A DNA stretch of 64,000 nucleotides, taken from Escherichia phage vB_VIPECOOM01. The stretch lies in the sequence record OQ721909. The stretch is one strand, 5' to 3'. Position 1 is the stretch's first letter, and each line of letters opens with the position of its first letter. A model generated the notes under the pieces. The model was not told where the DNA came from, did not search any database, and was given only the letters and a program-made list of their open reading frames with translations. Shown piece by piece: positions 4,479 through 61,682 of the stretch. The position numbers and the translations under genes were made by a program.

Positions 4479-5042
4479 TTATTTATCTAGTTTAGTTATT
4501 ATAGCTTCTGCGGCAGCTTTTAGCTTAGATGCGGTGTTAATACGATTTTTAATTTCAGTATACGCATCGCCAAGAACATCAAGGCTATCAGAATAAACAC
4601 TTACACTATTGCGTTCGCTATTTGAAATAGAACCTTTAGTTTTACGATCAAAATCGGTGTACACGTCTTGAAGATCACGGGCTGCCTTCTTTGCATCATC
4701 CAATGCGTCAAGAGCTTTATTCAAAGCATTAACGTATTTTTTAGTGTCGAACATATTCTTAGAAATTTTAACAGGTGCGCGTTCAGGAGTAGCTAATGCA
4801 GATTTAGGAACCTGAGCGCCAGATGCCAATTTCTTAGAAATTTTGAAAAACGCTTTATTGAATTTATTTTCTTGACTCATCGTAAAAGAACTATTATCGA
4901 TGTTGTACATTTCAATAGCTTTAGCTTTCCACTTAAGAAAATCGCCGCGGTCTTTTGGGTCCAAGTGGAAGAATACTTTAGTAAGATCTGCTTCAGATGG
5001 TAATTTTGCTGCTTCGGTTAAAAATTCGGCATAGGTTTTCAT
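4479..5042 (-). CDS. Internal-protein-like protein with N-terminal capsid-targeting sequence
   Basis: N-terminus MKTYAEFLTEAA matches the T4 internal protein CTS pattern (MKTYQEFIAE) plus an L-x-E prohead protease site; lysine-rich body; bracketed by terminators. Confidence 0.6.
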   Translation of the reverse strand: MKTYAEFLTEAAKLPSEADLTKVFFHLDPKDRGDFLKWKAKAIEMYNIDNSSFTMSQENKFNKAFFKISKKLASGAQVPKSALATPERAPVKISKNMFDTKKYVNALNKALDALDDAKKAARDLQDVYTDFDRKTKGSISNSERNSVSVYSDSLDVLGDAYTEIKNRINTASKLKAAAEAIITKLDK

Positions 5043-5131
5043 TTAAAATCCTTGAAATGATTTATCAGTTGGTTATTAATTATTTATTACTTTGCTATTA
5101 TCTGCAGCAGCATTCTCTATGTGATTCAAAC

Positions 5132-5160
5132 TAAAAAGCCCCGACCGAAAGGTCGGGGCT
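5132..5160 (-). terminator. Rho-independent terminator
   Basis: Stem agccccgacc/ggtcggggct with GAAA loop, followed by UUUUU on the minus strand. Confidence 0.75.
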
Positions 5161-5167
5161 AAGAATG

Positions 5168-5641
5168 TTATTTGATTTGTTTAGCAGACCAAATGCGGTC
5201 TTTAATAATTTTTTGGATGTCTTCAACATACTCTAGGTCATGAGCATGTGGGTTATCTTTGAAACTATAAGCACGAGCTAGTTTTTGGCCTTCAGTTTTG
5301 ATTACTAAAAGCTCTTTAAGGATAGCTTCATATTTAGCGATAATTCCTTTAACAATATTTTTTTCTTGTGCAACTTTAGGATCTGCTTTAGGAGCAGGTT
5401 TACCCGAAGCCTTTGCAAAAGCAGCGCCAGTAGCAACTAAACTTTTCCAGGCCATACTAACTGCATTTCCTGTAAATCCTTCTGCTTTCATGTCGCGGGC
5501 AAATTGGAATCGTGATTCGTCAGAAGCATCTTTATAGGAATATTTACCCGCTGCAATGGCTGCTTTTGCGACAGCTTGAATTTCGGTGCTAGATGCTTCA
5601 TTTAACACCGCTTCATTTAAAAATTGAGCATATGATTTCAT
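5168..5641 (-). CDS. Internal-protein-like protein with N-terminal capsid-targeting sequence
   Basis: N-terminus MKSYAQFLNEAV (CTS-like, L-N-E cleavage motif); own late promoter upstream and terminator downstream. Confidence 0.6.
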   Translation of the reverse strand: MKSYAQFLNEAVLNEASSTEIQAVAKAAIAAGKYSYKDASDESRFQFARDMKAEGFTGNAVSMAWKSLVATGAAFAKASGKPAPKADPKVAQEKNIVKGIIAKYEAILKELLVIKTEGQKLARAYSFKDNPHAHDLEYVEDIQKIIKDRIWSAKQIK

Positions 5642-5680
5642 CTTATTTCCTGTTTTAATTCGTGATTTAATATACTACTA

Positions 5681-5688
5681 TATTTATA
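5681..5688 (-). promoter_or_regulatory. T4 late promoter TATAAATA (minus strand)
   Basis: Plus tatttata at 5681-5688, about 40 nt upstream of the 5641 start. Confidence 0.6.
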
Positions 5689-5690
5689 CT

Positions 5691-5718
5691 AAAAAGCCCC
5701 AACCTTTCGGTCGGGGCT
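5691..5718 (-). terminator. Rho-independent terminator closing the tRNA/small-RNA transcription unit
   Basis: Stem agccccaacc/ggtcggggct (one G-U), loop TTTC, then UUUUU on minus strand. Confidence 0.7.
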
Positions 5719-5725
5719 AAGCCTT

Positions 5726-6030
5726 GCGGCAACCTTGTCGGGGTTCCACCTGCTAAGGCAAGTGTTTGTACGAAACGCCGGGATTCGAACCCGGTTATTA
5801 AGCAGTTGACGCTACTCAATATTTTTAAAAGGCCATATCTCGACCATATCCGAACGTTCCGTCAAAAACGCTACTCGGCTTACGGCAAAGATATTTCCTC
5901 GAATCGATAATTCGGTGCGCCGTTTCTGCTGTGATGTAAGGGGATATTAACAAATCGTAAAGATTTATTAAGACCAGTCCTTACGCAGGGAACATCAGTC
6001 CGACGACTTACCGGTAGCGACCCGGTTTCT
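5726..6030 (-). ncRNA. ORF-free structured region, candidate stable small RNA(s) co-transcribed with the tRNAs
   Basis: No ORF of 60 aa or more on either strand over about 300 bp despite dense coding elsewhere; tRNA-like T-arm CCGGG-TTCGAAT-CCCGG (5778-5794) with pairing acceptor-like strands CGGAACG/CGTTTCG (5855-5861 / 5771-5777) but no canonical D or anticodon arm; sits between tRNA operon and terminator. T4 has species 1/2 stable RNAs near its tRNAs. Confidence 0.35.
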
Positions 6031-6380
6031 TAATATTCTTTTAAAGCATCAATTTGTTCACGGCGTTTACGCCATAAATCAATTGCTTCATACGCAGATT
6101 CAGCATTTCGAATTGGACGGCATTTATATAAAGACTTATGATTTTGATATTGTGTAGATAACGGAATTTTATCTAAAAGGTCTTTACGTTCAAAATATTC
6201 GTAACCATCTAAACCAAATGAACGATTTTTGAGAAATTGCCAATGACCGTATTCGTTTTCGACATAAACATAATCCGCGTGTTGATAAAGCAAATTAATT
6301 ACACGTTCAGAAATAACAGTGTCATTGTGATTAAAATAAAATGTTAAATCATGAACTACTAAATAAACATTACCTTTCAT
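6030..6380 (-). CDS. Hypothetical protein embedded in the tRNA operon
   Basis: 116 aa, SD gaggaaaat before ATG, starts 17 nt after tRNA-Arg on same strand. Confidence 0.55.
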   Translation of the reverse strand: MKGNVYLVVHDLTFYFNHNDTVISERVINLLYQHADYVYVENEYGHWQFLKNRSFGLDGYEYFERKDLLDKIPLSTQYQNHKSLYKCRPIRNAESAYEAIDLWRKRREQIDALKEY

Positions 6381-6396
6381 ATTTTCCTCACTTAAT

Positions 6397-6472
6397 TGGT
6401 CGAGGCAGTAGGGATCGAACCTACGACCTAGGACTTAGAAGGTCCTTGCTCTTCCTTCTGAGCTATGCCCCG
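6397..6472 (-). tRNA. tRNA-Arg (anticodon TCT)
   Basis: Hand-folded cloverleaf, anticodon loop CTTCTAA, T-loop GGTTCGATCC, CCA encoded. Confidence 0.8.
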
Positions 6473-6476
6473 TAAT

Positions 6477-6552
6477 TGGGGTGACCGATGGGAGTCGAAC
6501 CCATGACTACGAGAATCACAATCTCGAGTTCTACCAACTGAACTACGGCCAC
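6477..6552 (-). tRNA. tRNA-His (anticodon GTG)
   Basis: 76 nt cloverleaf; anticodon arm CGAGA-TTGTGAT-TCTCG; closely resembles E. coli tRNA-His from memory. Confidence 0.7.
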
Positions 6553-6666
6553 ATTAATACCTACTCCAACAATCAAGATGTCTTCACACGAAATTAAGAG
6601 AAGAGTGATCAGTTCAACCCCGATAATCGCGTCAAGTAGATATTAATGTGACAATTGTCACAAATT

Positions 6667-6741
6667 TGGCGGACGTGATAGGATTCGAACCTATAACCAA
6701 TCGCTTAACAGGCGATCGCTCTGCCATTGAGCTACACATCC
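6667..6741 (-). tRNA. tRNA-Asn (anticodon GTT)
   Basis: 75 nt; anticodon loop CTGTTAA; T-arm ATAGG-TTCGAAT-CCTAT; CCA encoded. Confidence 0.7.
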
Positions 6742-6745
6742 AAAT

Positions 6746-6832
6746 TGGTGGGGAGTGATGGAGTCGAACCACCCGAGTCGCAATGACAATGGATTTACAG
6801 TCCACACCGCTACCTCTACGGGATAACTCCCC
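6746..6832 (-). tRNA. tRNA-Tyr (anticodon GTA), long variable arm
   Basis: 87 nt; anticodon loop CTGTAAA; long extra arm; CCA encoded. Confidence 0.7.
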
Positions 6833-6845
6833 TTAATTCTTAATT

Positions 6846-6920
6846 TGGTGGCCCTGGGTGGAATTGAACCACCATCTGGCGATTATGAGTCGCTTGCTTG
6901 AACCTTCCAGCTACAGGGCC
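6846..6920 (-). tRNA. tRNA with CAT anticodon, most likely Ile (lysidine type); Met not excluded
   Basis: 75 nt; anticodon arm AGCGA-CTCATAA-TCGCC resembles E. coli tRNA-Ile2 from memory; T4 tRNA-Ile also carries CAU. Confidence 0.65.
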
Positions 6921-6929
6921 AAATTTTTC

Positions 6930-7412
6930 TTATTTTATGTAATATTTATTTAAAAACTTTCTAGCTTGAGTATGGCTAACATTTATAGCGTTTGCATAAT
7001 TTTTAATAAAACCTCGTTCATCCATATTAAAATTTTCTAATATTTTTAATCGTCTAATTATCTCATCTTGGCTTAAGGTACTTGCATTATTTTTAGAAAT
7101 TTTTTCTAAAGACTGCACTGAGTGTTTTCGACCATTAAAATTAAAATTTTTAGGTTTTGGAGGAAATCTATCATTTAGTCTCGCATCTTTTGTATTTTGA
7201 TTATTAGTTGCGCAATATATGTTATTTAATGAGTATGGTCCTTTATCACCAAAACGACACATACAGTATTCATGACCCTTTCTTCCACGCTTATCATAAT
7301 TTCCCGTTGATTTCCACCAATTCAACCACTCATCAAAAGTTAAATTCCATTCAATGTTTCTACGTATAGCAGAATTCCGCTGAGAAATATATTTTGCATA
7401 ATCTTCTTTCAT
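6930..7412 (-). mobile_element. Free-standing HNH-like (His-Me finger) homing endonuclease gene inserted between tRNA genes
   Basis: 160 aa; EWNLTFDEW plus CxC and GDKGPYSLNNIYCATNNQN motif resembling degenerate phage HNH nucleases; basic C-terminal HTH-like tail; interrupts the tRNA cluster. Confidence 0.5.
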
Positions 7413-56907: not shown

Positions 56908-56911
56908 CAAT

Positions 56912-56940
56912 GGGGACCGAAAGGTCCCCATATTTTTATT
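56912..56940. terminator. Bidirectional terminator between gene 54 and the alt-side genes
   Basis: ggggacc-gaaa-ggtcccc hairpin with T-run on plus and A-run upstream. Confidence 0.7.
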
Positions 56941-57226
56941 TGCGGAATGAAATAAAAGCAGCAACTGAAGCAACTAAACTGTCTTCAATATAAACTTCAA
57001 TTTTTACCGGAGCTTCTGATTCAAATTTACCTGTTACTACACCTTGGAAAATGCTTTCAGTCTGTTCTGGCTTTGAAAAATTTTCAGAAGGAAAAATTCC
57101 GAACTTTTTATCTGTTCCAAAAATTTTGATAAATTCATCATAAACTGCTTCATTAAAAGCATTATCAGCAGGAATAACGCCTTCAACTACAAGTTCTTGA
57201 CCTAAAAAGCGCAAAGAAGATTTCAT
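56936..57226 (-). CDS. Hypothetical early protein downstream of alt
   Basis: 96 aa, SD gaggaa, own early promoter upstream. Confidence 0.55.
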   Translation of the reverse strand: MKSSLRFLGQELVVEGVIPADNAFNEAVYDEFIKIFGTDKKFGIFPSENFSKPEQTESIFQGVVTGKFESEAPVKIEVYIEDSLVASVAAFISFRK

Positions 57227-57252
57227 TTTGTGTTCCTCATGTTATGTAAGTA

Positions 57253-57287
57253 AAATTACTATAACACAACACGAGGGACTTGTAAAC
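57253..57287 (-). promoter_or_regulatory. Sigma70-like early promoter abutting the alt stop codon
   Basis: Minus GTTTAC (plus 57282-57287), 17-nt spacer, TATAGT -10. Confidence 0.5.
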
Positions 57288-59344
57288 TACATTTTGAACT
57301 TTTTAGACATTCCGTTGATGTTAACCAAAGAAGCCAAGATTTGAGAAACTTCGTTTTCCTCTTCTTTTGATTCTTCTACAAGGAATTGATTAAATCCAGC
57401 CATTGGACGAACTTCACCAGTTTCCATCAGATGGTCGCCATCATATACCGATTCTTCTAATTGTTCAGAAGGAGGAACGATTGTGCCTTCGACTAGATAC
57501 TTATTATAAGCAGTTTCTTTCATCATGTACGTACTCACTTTATTAATCTTCAGTAGAATTCCACGTGGTAGAATAATTTCAGCTTCTGATGGAAATCCTG
57601 ATAAATGACCTGGAACGATAACTTTGATTCGCTCAGCTCCTTTAATTACCATACCAACGCTAGTTTCAGCATCTTCATTCGCATAAGCAGAGCGACTGCC
57701 CATATGCATCAAATCTTCTGCGTCAACTGAACCTTCTCCTTCACCAGAAAATACTGCACCGGAATCATCTAGAGCCATATAGTTTTTACCATACTCACCG
57801 AAGATATTTGGTTTAAGCGATGTGGATACGAAGTTCTTGAAATAAAACATTTTATTTTCAATATTATGGCGTAAAGTTTTGAAAGTAACTTCTTGTCCAC
57901 GGTAAAGTGTAGTTCCTGGAGGAAGAACTGAACCTTTAGCAAAGGCAGAATCCATTGTCTCGATGTGTTTAATAGCTCGTTCCATATATTCTTCACGGGT
58001 AGAATCTGGTTTACCTAAAAGGAACGAGTTCATTTCAACATATGAATCTGCACAATAATCTTCAATTACATCAGATTCAGCTTGAGTCAGTCCTTTTGGA
58101 GTTACTTCGGTGCTTGCGTATTCATATGCCTGGGCGGCAGATTCATTAATCAATTTATAAATGCCATTCATGACAAATTGAATAATAGCTACCTTTTCAT
58201 CTGGCGTGGCTTTAGAACCTTTAACTAAATCATTAACAATTTTCTTAATAACATCAAAGCTGTTAGAAATATTAATATCAGAAAGATCACTTAAAATTTT
58301 ATCAGTTTTATAATCAAAAAATTCTTTATTCTTTAAATATTCTTGAGAACCTTGATATGTTATATCGCTCTGTAATTTAATAGATGGATCACGTAAACGT
58401 GCATGAGCCAATGCAATATGATTTCGGAAGCTTTCTAGTTCATAATCGTTAGATTTAAAACGAGAAGCGCTTCTCATACCACCTATAGCTCCTTTGCTGA
58501 AGTTTGAACCAATTTGAATAACGCCAGAGTTCATTGATCCTTCTGCTTTATATACCGGAACTTTAGATTCAAACTCTTGATATTTCTTAGCAGCGAAGCT
58601 ATCGCCCTGAAGTGAAGCATCAACAGTAGAATATTGAGCTTGTGCTGCTAATCGACGACTAATTTTAGTTTTCTGAATAACAGCTTGATCCGTGCGCTTA
58701 TCATTTTCTAAAGCAATAGAAGCAGCAACAGCAACAGCTTTAGGAACAGCATTACCCGTTTTAACGTCTACATAAACATCACCAACCTTTGATTCAACTT
58801 TTGTGAATAACTCAGTTGAAATAGGAGGTACACCTGGAATGTCTTCTAAATTGGCATTTTTACGGTAAACCATAATATATGCATACTTTTTATCGTAATC
58901 CCAGATTTCCTTTAAAAGAACATATCGACCTGCTCCTTTAGTACGTACTAAACGGTCGGCAATAACTTGCATTTGACGAGCTGCGCCGTTTGTTTTACTC
59001 TTTAGTACGCGGAATAAGCATGCATCAATTTTATACTGTTTCATTGTTTGAAGAGCAGTATCAAAAACCGCATTAATGACACCAATTGGGTTTCCACCCA
59101 AGTTTTTAAGTTTAACTAATGATAGTTTTTCATTGACACCTATCATTACGATATGCATCATTTTATCGCCTGGCTTAACGTTTTTATTTGTATCACCACC
59201 AGAGGTGTATGTACAAAATCTAAATCCAGGAAGCACACTTTCTTCACCGGCTTGAATAGCAAAAATTTGAGGTATTTTATGCTTAGGATTTAAGTTAACA
59301 ACCGGCGCCGAAGCGCCGTCAAATAATTCTGTAATAAGTTCCAT
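57287..59344 (-). CDS. alt: ADP-ribosyltransferase Alt (head-packaged, injected)
   Basis: 685 aa; C-terminal R-S-E triad candidates (LYRGQ, FVSTSL, EAEIILPRG); N-terminus MELITELFD. Confidence 0.8.
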   Translation of the reverse strand: MELITELFDGASAPVVNLNPKHKIPQIFAIQAGEESVLPGFRFCTYTSGGDTNKNVKPGDKMMHIVMIGVNEKLSLVKLKNLGGNPIGVINAVFDTALQTMKQYKIDACLFRVLKSKTNGAARQMQVIADRLVRTKGAGRYVLLKEIWDYDKKYAYIMVYRKNANLEDIPGVPPISTELFTKVESKVGDVYVDVKTGNAVPKAVAVAASIALENDKRTDQAVIQKTKISRRLAAQAQYSTVDASLQGDSFAAKKYQEFESKVPVYKAEGSMNSGVIQIGSNFSKGAIGGMRSASRFKSNDYELESFRNHIALAHARLRDPSIKLQSDITYQGSQEYLKNKEFFDYKTDKILSDLSDINISNSFDVIKKIVNDLVKGSKATPDEKVAIIQFVMNGIYKLINESAAQAYEYASTEVTPKGLTQAESDVIEDYCADSYVEMNSFLLGKPDSTREEYMERAIKHIETMDSAFAKGSVLPPGTTLYRGQEVTFKTLRHNIENKMFYFKNFVSTSLKPNIFGEYGKNYMALDDSGAVFSGEGEGSVDAEDLMHMGSRSAYANEDAETSVGMVIKGAERIKVIVPGHLSGFPSEAEIILPRGILLKINKVSTYMMKETAYNKYLVEGTIVPPSEQLEESVYDGDHLMETGEVRPMAGFNQFLVEESKEEENEVSQILASLVNINGMSKKFKM

Positions 59345-59347
59345 GAT

Positions 59348-61444
59348 TTATCCTTGAACGAACTTGTAAGGCATGTTTGTAATATCTATGCAAGACGCAA
59401 TAATTCCAAGAGATGATTCTGCTTTCTGTTTAACATTTGATGAAACAAATGATGCAAAGTCAACTCTGTCTTCTATTTCAATATCACCTGTCATTGCAAC
59501 CAATTCACCAGTTTCCATTAAATGGTCTCCATCATAGATTACCGATTCGGTGAGTTCTTCCGTAGTCATAACTTCAGCTTGAATGAGTTTTGTATTATTA
59601 GATGTTGTTCCGTCATTATTGGAAGCATCAGTTATTTTATTAACTTTGACCATCAATCCGCGTGGTAAAATAACTTCAGCTTCAGTTGCTATTCCGAGAC
59701 TTCCTGGATATACAACATTAACTTTATGAGCTCCATCAATTGCCCATCCTATTTGAACTTTAACGTATTCAGGATTTTCTTTATACGCTCTTATTTCGTT
59801 TGGATTAATAGTTATTCCTTCTTCATTTTTATCAACTGTTAATTCATTGCGAGCTTCTGGTTCTAAAAGACCAATACCAGCATGCGTAATTCCAAAACGT
59901 CCAAAAATGATAGGAGTTAAAGAAGTAGATACAAAATTTCTGAAATAGAACACTTTATTTTTAACTAGTGCTTCGTATATAGGAGCAGTCATACTTTGAG
60001 CACGATAAACTGTAATGCCTTCTGGTATACGGTCACCATTTTCAAAGGCTGAATCTAAATTATTTATCGCAGATTCAATTTCTTTTTCACTCATTACATC
60101 ATATCGTTCTGGATTATAGCGTCCTAAAAGAAGATTATTGATGTCAGTATATCCTGATCCACAATACTCTCTAATGCCGCGCTTTTGCGATGGAGTATAT
60201 TTAGAACCATCACGGGCAATAGTAATATCAATCATTGGACCTGCACCAATTCCAGAAAAGCTATAAATCATTCGTTTGAGGAATTTAGTTTTTGCTGCGT
60301 TCCAGGAATTTTTAGTTATTTCTTCCCAGACTTCATCTGGCTGTCCTTTACGGGTTTTATTATGTTTATCAAGCCAAGTATCTTTATATTCTTCAAAGAA
60401 TTTATTAATAGCTGCTGCATACTTCTCTAAACATTTTATTGAAGTAGTTGGTTCATTTTTGATCGCGTTAAAAATTACATCTTTAATTTTTTCAGAAACT
60501 TCATTAACCTCACTTTTTGAAAAGAATTTATAGTCATAGTGAAGTTCATCTGCAGTCCCTTCGGCAATAATTTTTGCTGCCTTAGTTTTAGAAGCTAATG
60601 AATTAATTCCAAGTTTCATTTCTTCCGCTTCGGGAATTAAAGGAGCTGTAGCAGGTTTATTGAAATTAGCTGCAGTAGATTCATACTTCTGGAATAATTC
60701 ACTTTCAAATCTAGAAGATTCCAATGACTGACTTTGTGCAATTGCTCTACGGGAAATTTTAACTTTAACTATTACAGCTTGGTCAGAACGTTTATCGTTT
60801 TCTTGCGCAATAGATGCTGCAATTGCCTCATTTTTAGTTACTTGAGCTCCAGTATCTTTATTGATATAAACATCGCCGACCTTCGATTCAACTTTAGTAA
60901 AGAGCTCGGTACTAATTTCTGGAACTCCTGGAATGTCTTCTAGTGATACATTTTTGCGATGTATAAGAATATATGCATACTTTTTATCGTAATCCCAGAG
61001 TTCCTTAAGAAGGACGTATCTGCCACCTGAACGACTACGGATAAGTCTATCAGCAATAACTTGAATTTGTCGAGCTTGACCAGCAGTTTTAGACTTAAGA
61101 ATACGGAGCATACAGGCATCAATTTTATACTGACGCATCGTCTGCATTGCAACAGTAAAAACTGAATTGATATAATTAATTGGGCTTGGACCGAGACCTT
61201 TTAATTTAGCAATTGAACCTTTAGCAGTTAATGTAAAAGGAACAATATGCATCATTTTATCGCCCATTTTTAAATCGCGATTAGTATCACCTCCAGATGT
61301 ATAGGTACATAAACGAAAGCCTGGTTGTTCAATTGCGTCATCAACATGAACTGAAAAAATTTGCGGTATTTTCTTCTTTGGATTTAAGTTTGTAATCGGA
61401 AGAGTAGTATCTTCGTCAAATAATTCTGTAATGAGTTCCATCAT
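59348..61444 (-). CDS. Second Alt-like ADP-ribosyltransferase (tandem paralog)
   Basis: 698 aa; shares N-terminal third and C-terminal R-S-E elements (VYRAQ, FVSTSL, EAEVILPRG) with 57287-59344; central region divergent. Confidence 0.75.
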   Translation of the reverse strand: MMELITELFDEDTTLPITNLNPKKKIPQIFSVHVDDAIEQPGFRLCTYTSGGDTNRDLKMGDKMMHIVPFTLTAKGSIAKLKGLGPSPINYINSVFTVAMQTMRQYKIDACMLRILKSKTAGQARQIQVIADRLIRSRSGGRYVLLKELWDYDKKYAYILIHRKNVSLEDIPGVPEISTELFTKVESKVGDVYINKDTGAQVTKNEAIAASIAQENDKRSDQAVIVKVKISRRAIAQSQSLESSRFESELFQKYESTAANFNKPATAPLIPEAEEMKLGINSLASKTKAAKIIAEGTADELHYDYKFFSKSEVNEVSEKIKDVIFNAIKNEPTTSIKCLEKYAAAINKFFEEYKDTWLDKHNKTRKGQPDEVWEEITKNSWNAAKTKFLKRMIYSFSGIGAGPMIDITIARDGSKYTPSQKRGIREYCGSGYTDINNLLLGRYNPERYDVMSEKEIESAINNLDSAFENGDRIPEGITVYRAQSMTAPIYEALVKNKVFYFRNFVSTSLTPIIFGRFGITHAGIGLLEPEARNELTVDKNEEGITINPNEIRAYKENPEYVKVQIGWAIDGAHKVNVVYPGSLGIATEAEVILPRGLMVKVNKITDASNNDGTTSNNTKLIQAEVMTTEELTESVIYDGDHLMETGELVAMTGDIEIEDRVDFASFVSSNVKQKAESSLGIIASCIDITNMPYKFVQG

Positions 61445-61464
61445 ATCCTCTCTAGTGTTTATTC

Positions 61465-61472
61465 TATTTATA
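61465..61472 (-). promoter_or_regulatory. Late promoter TATAAATA (minus) upstream of the tandem alt genes
   Basis: Plus tatttata at 61465-61472, 21 nt upstream of the start at 61444. Confidence 0.55.
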
Positions 61473-61477
61473 AAATT

Positions 61478-61495
61478 AAAGGCCCGAAGGCCTTT
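61478..61495 (-). other. Stem-loop AAAGGCC-CGAA-GGCCTTT
   Basis: Perfect 7-bp stem with tetraloop, overlapping the stop of the 61494-61682 ORF. Confidence 0.45.
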
Positions 61496-61682
61496 AATAA
61501 TCTAGTGGTAAGAGAGTACGGTATATTTCAAACTTCGGACCTTTTTCATAGGCATCAAATGTTTCTGTAAATTTATTATAAGCATATGCATCTACAAATT
61601 CAAGAACGATTTGTGATACAGAAGTAGAAACATCTCCACCTTCTTTTTGAGCCACGACAATTGTTTCTAAGTAAGCTTTCAT
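61494..61682 (-). CDS. Small hypothetical protein (30.9 position)
   Basis: 62 aa, overlaps the ligase stop. Confidence 0.5.
   Translation of the reverse strand: MKAYLETIVVAQKEGGDVSTSVSQIVLEFVDAYAYNKFTETFDAYEKGPKFEIYRTLLPLDY

Follow-up and report, generated by a model that had tools for sequence, protein, structure and literature searches.

The 64,000-nt stretch of Escherichia phage vB_VIPECOOM01 analyzed here (record OQ721909; "the window" in the following) carries two adjacent open reading frames (ORFs) on its minus strand, at 57287-59344 (685 aa) and 59348-61444 (698 aa), whose products are related to Alt, the ADP-ribosyltransferase (ART) of phage T4. We refer to the upstream protein as AltA and to the downstream protein as AltB. 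The 4.8 kb around the pair are 100% identical to Escherichia phage vB_VIPECOOM03 (OQ721911.1; Straboviridae, Tequatrovirus), in which both genes are labelled "Alt-like RNA polymerase ADP-ribosyltransferase", and show 97% identity to many other T4-like phages. The locus runs from DNA ligase (gene 30) through alt.1, alt, the second alt and alt.-3 to the convergent baseplate genes 54 and 48, and this gene order matches that of the T4 alt locus.

Both AltA (59348-61441, minus strand; 697 aa plus stop) and AltB (57287-59344, minus strand; 685 aa plus stop) matched PF03496 (ADPrib_exo_Tox) well above its cut-off of 23.4 bits (AltA: 129.1 bits, E = 1.7e-37; AltB: 72.4 bits, E = 4e-20) and PHROG 802 over their full length (E = 5.7e-255 and 4.8e-273 for the two proteins). 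For close homologues, a match to PF26846 (Tevenvirinae_ADPRT) is precomputed. NCBIfam returned no matches for either protein, and a sequence search of the PDB yielded weak ART matches for AltA, none for AltB and no solved Alt structure.

The catalytic motifs of R-S-E-type ARTs occur in the correct order in AltA (R480 in YRAQ, S505-T-S507, E587-A-E589) and in AltB (R482 in YRGQ, S507-T-S509, E587-A-E589), and the catalytic domain has the ART fold. T4 Alt is inactive when the second glutamate of its E-x-E motif is mutated (PMC11404850), and we infer that the "E577" of that study is E576 of the RefSeq T4 protein counted from an upstream in-frame ATG. The corresponding residue is E589 in both AltA and AltB. 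AltA and AltB are almost certainly two functional Alt-family enzymes.

The numbering question also arises in the window, where the AltA gene opens with two in-frame ATGs at 61444 and 61441 (ATGATGGAA). The second ATG is most likely the start, giving 697 aa: it is the one used in OQ721911.1, it has a GAGG Shine-Dalgarno sequence 5 nt upstream, and the resulting MELITE N-terminus is that of T4 Alt. For T4 Alt, the literature numbering is inconsistent: the mutant name "Alt E577A" fits the catalytic glutamate only if counting begins at the first ATG, and the cleavage sites ITE-6 and LTE-619 of the proteomic study (PMC5694885) fit numbering from the second.

Segmental divergence of the two paralogues

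Each protein consists of four parts: an Alt-specific N-domain of ~238 aa that opens with the MELITE cleavage motif, a ~175-aa helical middle, a catalytic domain of the C3/VIP2-like R-S-ExE type and, after an L-x-E motif, a tail of ~55-65 aa. On the minus strand, the N-domains correspond to 60728-61441 in AltA (codons 1-238; predicted alpha/beta fold) and 58634-59344 in AltB (codons 1-237), both with the ITE-6 cleavage motif. The divergent middle of AltB occupies 58085-58633 (codons ~238-420) and its ART catalytic domain, with the motifs given above, 57470-58084. The tails, putative C-propeptides, follow LTE630-632 in AltA (59351-59545; low predicted local distance difference test score, pLDDT, in the model) and LEE629-631 in AltB (57290-57451; pLDDT <50), where the tail contains YDGDHLMETGE.

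Over their full length, AltA and AltB are 41% identical (BLASTP, E = 1e-164), and this similarity is distributed unevenly. Residues 1-238 share ~66-68% identity (z = 154 against shuffles), and MELITELFD, WDYDKKYAY and DIPGVP.ISTELFTKVESKVGDVY are found in both. Identity falls to ~18% across residues ~239-415, where the gapped local score is indistinct from background (z = 0.7-1.0; 307-429 of 2000 shuffles scored as high). It rises again to 30-55% in the ART domain (z = 50), except for the stretch between STS and ExE (13-27%), and amounts to ~35-45% in the C-terminal tail (z = 17), in which YDGDHLMETGE is conserved.

A first-pass annotation made from the window alone had described two adjacent genes with conserved ends, a divergent middle and R-S-E catalytic elements in both copies. 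This description holds: both ORFs are intact, similarity varies by segment, and YRAQ/YRGQ, STS and EAE are all present. The pairwise alignment and domain mapping that it had proposed as a check likewise found the catalytic residues intact in both copies and the middles without significant alignment, even with gaps or profiles. The shared N-terminal third exists but spans ~238 rather than roughly 200 residues, and the central regions, which were called unrelated, are so in sequence but are predicted to be all-helical with collinear helices in both proteins. Its overall picture of tandem, intact Alt-family enzymes with conserved ends was sound. The upstream gene is not a plain T4 Alt (~70% identity overall). 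The conserved C-terminal tail, the mosaic nature of AltA and the fact that the arrangement is common and already annotated in Tequatrovirus had gone unmentioned. The functional reading of the annotation, in which a swapped target-recognition region gives two injected toxins different host targets, is reasonable and partly supported. Packaging gains indirect support from the gp21 cleavage motifs kept in both proteins; the middle is hypervariable across the family and probably a very diverged homologous helical domain.

Relative to T4 Alt (NP_049811), AltA is 15 aa longer and is a mosaic allele. Its residues 1-246 are ~100% identical to the T4 protein (one difference), its middle ~27%, its ART domain ~65% with a variable loop (STS-ExE) of 23-40%, and its last ~100 residues 83-93%, with 95% in the tail. 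In DNA sequence, AltA and T4 alt are 96-99% identical down to ~60770, 50-75% across ~60720-59590 and 96-98% from ~59583 onward, with sharp breakpoints that recur in the comparison with phage a48. A ~1.1-kb central cassette comprising the helical middle and the ART core (59590-60720, minus strand; bounds approximate to ~100 nt) is replaced inside an otherwise near-identical alt gene.

Between the paralogues, the N-domains differ by a synonymous divergence (dS) of ~1.4 and a nonsynonymous divergence (dN) of 0.28. Since synonymous sites are near saturation, the duplication is old and the N-domain is held by purifying selection; gene conversion as the cause of N-domain conservation is ruled out on the same grounds.

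The variability of the middle extends across the family. An N-domain profile search of 1.84 billion proteins gave 74 representatives (50% clusters), nearly all of them Alt-like proteins of 600-712 aa with the domain at residues 1-240. Across 55 aligned family members (27-47% identity), R482, S507, E587 and E589 are invariant and the cleavage glutamates E6 and E631 at least 90% conserved, and the stretch ~240-420 is without any consensus. By BLAST, the middles fell into a B group (14), an A/T4 group (13), a third group (7), one pair and 32 singletons. AltA and T4-type middles were linked at E ~1e-28, and no BLAST path led from the A group to the B group. Within lineages, the ratio dN/dS of these hypervariable middles is 0.06 (AltB) and 0.13 (AltA), which points to a constrained domain rather than a drifting linker. 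In the AlphaFold2 (AF2) models of AltB and AltA (mean pLDDT 77 and 73), an alpha/beta N-domain leads into a middle made up of helices alone, followed by the ART domain and a tail of low confidence; the AltB middle reaches a pLDDT of mostly 80-93.

Also recovered with the profile were the distant proteins P0253, P0255 (541 aa), P0258 (1142 aa) and P0259, which have an N-terminal Alt N-domain and no Pfam ART match. Visual inspection suggests degenerate ART motifs in P0253 and P0258, and the C-terminal 350 residues of P0255 match nothing. The Alt N-domain of these proteins might be joined to a different effector or to a very degenerate ART.

Whether the middle contributes to substrate choice bears on the function of the pair, and we lean slightly against such a contribution while regarding it as a real prospect. 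In C3-like ARTs, the ADP-ribosylating turn-turn (ARTT) loops determine substrate recognition. By analogy, any difference in targets could be set by the variable ART loops between STS and ExE, with the helical middle acting as a structural spacer. Such a spacer might be needed, for example, when the protein folds within the head, when it unfolds and leaves via the tail, or in contacts with the scaffold, and its fast evolution would have nothing to do with substrate choice. The low identity of these loops, both between the paralogues and between AltA and T4 Alt, fits this explanation, as do the similar length and collinear all-helical prediction of the two middles. The replaced AltA cassette spans the middle and the ART core together, so their contributions are not separable by that evidence. 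The constraint on the middle within types (dN/dS 0.06-0.13) and the confident AltB model speak against a spacer, and the existence of discrete middle types exceeds what would be expected of a passive one. We consider the loops as sole determinant rather unlikely but a serious alternative.

A second alternative is that the middles are truly non-homologous, i.e., that one paralogue acquired a foreign domain in a real domain swap. In its favor, there is no pairwise or transitive BLAST link, and hhalign returned a weak match of 12% probability between A/T-group and B-group middles (P = 0.0025, 42 columns). In addition, the AltA model, which is of lower confidence, superimposes poorly on Alta of phage SP18 (template modelling (TM) score ~0.4). 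Against this stand the near-equal lengths of the middles (174 vs 179 aa) between homologous flanks and their all-helical prediction in both proteins. Their helix order also beats block-shuffled controls: the secondary-structure alignment scored 110 versus 86.9 ± 10.6, a value reached by 15 of 1000 shuffles. The B group and the third group are connected at 96% by hhalign despite having no BLAST link at E <= 1e-3. Furthermore, the AltB model superimposes globally on SP18 Alta (TM 0.70/0.76 over 657 columns, 32% identity), whose middle is a BLAST singleton, and extreme sequence divergence within one fold therefore does occur in the Alt family.

Searches with the AltB middle and the N-domain profile yielded no domain of the middle type in proteins other than Alt-like ones; with the AltB middle alone, the homologue search returned one fragment and did not recover known B-type proteins either. 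In the structural comparisons, nothing convincingly matched the Alt N-domain or middle. On balance, the AltA and AltB middles are likely to be very diverged homologues, and a foreign insertion seems unlikely.

Distribution and selection of the tandem pair

The AltB central cassette was present at full length and >=90% identity in 400 phage records. The AltA-type cassette was found in 354 phage records versus 200 for the T4 type, and genomes combining A with B (G2133) and the T4 type with B (a48) both exist. In total, Alt-like matches occurred at 1,813 places in 1,220 records, with three in WG01. The two-gene state is the majority condition in relatives. Its existence is already known from GenBank, PHROGs and Pfam, since it is annotated in hundreds of genomes and covered by PHROG 802/PF26846, and a 2006 paper had already pointed out duplicated alt genes among T4-like phages (PMC1524935).

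T4 itself has lost the second gene. The translation of T4 alt.-1/alt.-2 matches AltB residues 1 to ~117 almost exactly with a frameshift near codon 54, and in T4 DNA a ~1.7-kb internal deletion joins codon ~117 to the last codons of an AltB-type gene. The T4 record annotates alt.-1/alt.-2 as "an old duplication of the first part of gene alt". As a frameshifted and deleted AltB remnant, they instead indicate the loss of a complete paralogue rather than a partial duplication.

Elsewhere, AltB was intact in all six genomes examined (the window and five others). Among orthologues of these six genomes, dN/dS was 0.00-0.06 in AltB segments and 0.00-0.14 in AltA segments, with ~0.01 for the AltA N-domain. 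These low values in every segment argue that both genes are functional. The two enzymes could nevertheless be redundant, modifying the same targets (RNA polymerase alpha and others) and being kept for dosage or robustness. They share architecture, processing motifs and catalytic motifs, both with an E-A-E that implies arginine specificity, and T4 manages without a second copy. The age of the duplication argues against redundancy, with ART domains ~34% identical and middles unalignable, as does strong purifying selection on each copy together with retention of the pair in ~400 genomes, the usual sign of diverged function. We thus regard redundancy as improbable. That AltB is a decaying or non-functional duplicate, as the remnant in T4 might suggest, is extremely improbable given its intact ORF here and in five of five other genomes, dN/dS of 0.00-0.06 in all segments, complete catalytic and cleavage residues and 400 records with the full cassette; an assignment as pseudogene is ruled out by the first two of these observations.

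A hybrid alt gene was observed on a 65-kb metagenomic contig of a T4-like phage (L008; Logan SRR24155011). It encodes protein P0005 (684 aa; positions 5001-7055), in which an A-like N-domain (94%) is joined to a B-type middle, ART domain and tail (97-98%). The gene lies alone between alt.1 and alt.-3, in place of the tandem pair, and P0005 looks like the product expected from an N-domain crossover between tandem copies. Together with the mosaic allele, the deletion remnant in T4 and the conservation of the middle within types that cannot be aligned with one another, this natural hybrid is a useful refinement of the known locus, if not a surprising one to specialists.

Probable late expression and head packaging, and the neighboring gene alt.-3

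The minus strand carries an exact match to the T4 late-promoter motif, TATAAATA, at 61465-61472, with the alt start codon following 23 nt downstream. No other exact copy occurs on this strand from 57200 to 61500, a stretch that covers both genes; this agrees with the single late promoter that the first-pass annotation had placed here. The whole 64-kb window contains 23 copies of TATAAATA versus 9.2 ± 3.3 expected, consistent with many T4 late promoters.

Upstream of the promoter, a putative hairpin terminator read from the sequence (61478-61495, minus strand; AAAGGCC-ttcg-GGCCTTT followed by AATTTT) would end the alt.1-like gene. A hairpin at the orthologous position is annotated as a putative terminator in phage G2133, and a conserved terminator upstream of alt has been described in T4-like phages (Nolan 2006, PMC1524935). 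AltA and AltB are separated by a 3-nt spacer (TAA-atc-ATG), with an AAGGA ribosome-binding site for AltB just upstream, and the layout of this spacer is identical in five other genomes. Late co-transcription of both genes from TATAAATA is likely because of the single promoter motif, the preceding hairpin and the spacer conserved in five genomes. Motif and T4 synteny thus agree with the late expression of T4 Alt-type proteins.

T4 Alt is a prohead-core protein present in ~40 copies per head (PMC9026906) and is injected with the DNA (PMC5512222). Mass spectrometry showed that gp21 removes six of its residues at ITE-6 and 63 at LTE-619 (PMC5694885); in RefSeq numbering, both motifs are found at these positions of T4 Alt. 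AltA carries ITE-6 and LTE630-632 and AltB carries ITE-6 and LEE629-631. The L-x-E motif lies ~63-65 residues from the C-terminus and is followed in both proteins by an SV(I)YDGDHLMETGE block. Both proteins therefore carry gp21 cleavage motifs at both ends.

The conservation of these motifs is the strongest available support for AltB following the T4 Alt assembly route. By analogy with T4, we consider it quite likely that AltA and AltB are both expressed late, packaged into the head, trimmed by gp21 and injected. Capsid targeting in T4, as far as known, relies on short propeptides at the N-terminus (PMC5694885), and the 238-aa N-domain itself is at most a candidate packaging determinant.

Directly downstream of AltB, a 96-aa ORF (56936-57226, minus strand) encodes a homologue of T4 Alt.-3 (PHROG 1739; Pfam DUF5498 in a related locus). 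T4 can escape the ART-based defence system CmdTAC through mutations that extend the C-terminus of alt.-3 (PMC11618068). The phage's own ART genes thus have as their neighbor a gene with a link to host defence by an ART. A consensus match to a sigma-70/T4-early-like promoter (57258-57286, minus strand; TTTACA-17 nt-TATAGT with a TG extension, the first hexamer being part of GTTTACA) lies directly after the AltB stop and before alt.-3, which suggests that alt.-3 may also be expressed early, without need of the late transcript of the alt genes. A strong 9-bp GC-rich hairpin with T-runs on both sides (56910-56931, both strands; ATGGGGACC-gaaa-GGTCCCCAT) separates gene 54 from the alt.-3 homologue, the two genes being convergent. 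It is likely a bidirectional terminator, and it is an annotated terminator in phage G2133.

Possible host targets and a two-gene model of the alt locus

The best explanation of these observations, which we hold with somewhat better than even confidence, is that the window contains the common two-gene alt locus of Tequatrovirus, with two old tandem paralogues of an NAD+:arginine ART. Both proteins would be incorporated into the core of the prohead, lose their two ends to gp21 cleavage and stay in the head. Once injected with the DNA, they would ADP-ribosylate host proteins ahead of all phage gene expression. Their conserved ends would serve assembly and processing and might double as homology arms for recombination. 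The helical middle and the variable ART loops, which come in discrete types, could plausibly give each enzyme a different substrate range.

T4 Alt modifies RNA polymerase alpha (Arg265) and other host proteins. This target list is not automatically transferable to AltA because its middle and ART domain differ from those of T4 Alt. We put the chance that the substrate ranges of AltA and AltB are non-identical at about even. A bolder possibility, to which we give a smaller though appreciable chance, is that the alt locus is a two-slot array of exchangeable injected effectors. Its nearly invariant N- and C-terminal parts would act in assembly and processing and also as homology arms, and recombination would exchange, fuse or remove the cassettes of helical middle plus ART that lie between them (here at least the A, B and T4 types, with further ones in relatives). 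Each cassette would direct the enzyme to different targets, possibly including defence systems.

Several points weigh against the two-gene explanation as a whole. The assignments of promoter and terminator are motif matches. T4 is fully viable without AltB and about a quarter of related records are without the B cassette (540 vs 400 records), so the second gene is dispensable in at least some settings. The middle may be irrelevant to target choice, given that the STS-ExE loops of the ART domain are as divergent. Our literature search turned up no proteomic or functional study of a second Alt copy, and the main texts of PMC12373910 and PMC9958956 do not contain "Alt" as a whole word.

Compared with known systems, the pair shares with T4 Alt the locus between gene 30/alt.1 and alt.-3/gene 54, the four-part architecture, the R-S-ExE motifs and the ITE-6 and L-x-E cleavage motifs. 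It differs in the ~1.1 kb replaced in the center of AltA and in AltB, which is ~40% identical overall with a middle that does not align; where T4 retains the alt.-1/alt.-2 remnant, AltB is full-length here. Other Alt sets of Tevenvirinae (SP18 "alta", the three copies of WG01, 44RR ORF187c and RB49 ORF183c) likewise consist of tandem or multiple genes with a conserved N-domain and ART, but their middles belong to other sequence groups and copy number ranges from 1 to 3. R-S-E toxins of the C3, VIP2, iota and Vis type lack the Alt N-domain, the helical middle and the protease-trimmed tail, and are delivered by binary-toxin or secretion routes instead of a phage head. In joining a conserved portion for delivery and processing to an exchangeable one, and in recombining within the former, Alt recalls polymorphic toxins (Rhs, contact-dependent inhibition (CDI) and MuF-fused phage effectors). 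This likeness is one of logic alone: the variable part of Alt is always an ART of the same clade with its helical neighbor rather than an unrelated toxin fold, and the system has no immunity gene.

For enzymes that a phage head injects to take over the host, Alt is the textbook case, and nearly all knowledge of it comes from T4. At the alt locus, T4 is atypical: most sequenced relatives keep a second, intact and constrained Alt that has been lost from T4, and in its commonest allele the first gene carries a central cassette different from that of T4. If the cassettes do set substrate range, wild T-even phages would inject ARTs whose targets may differ from those of T4 Alt, with relevance for host takeover, for phage/defence conflicts that involve ADP-ribosylation and for phage-therapy strains. 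If the locus is indeed a two-slot array, the reference phage T4, which lacks the second slot, would under-represent the injected repertoire of wild T-even phages.

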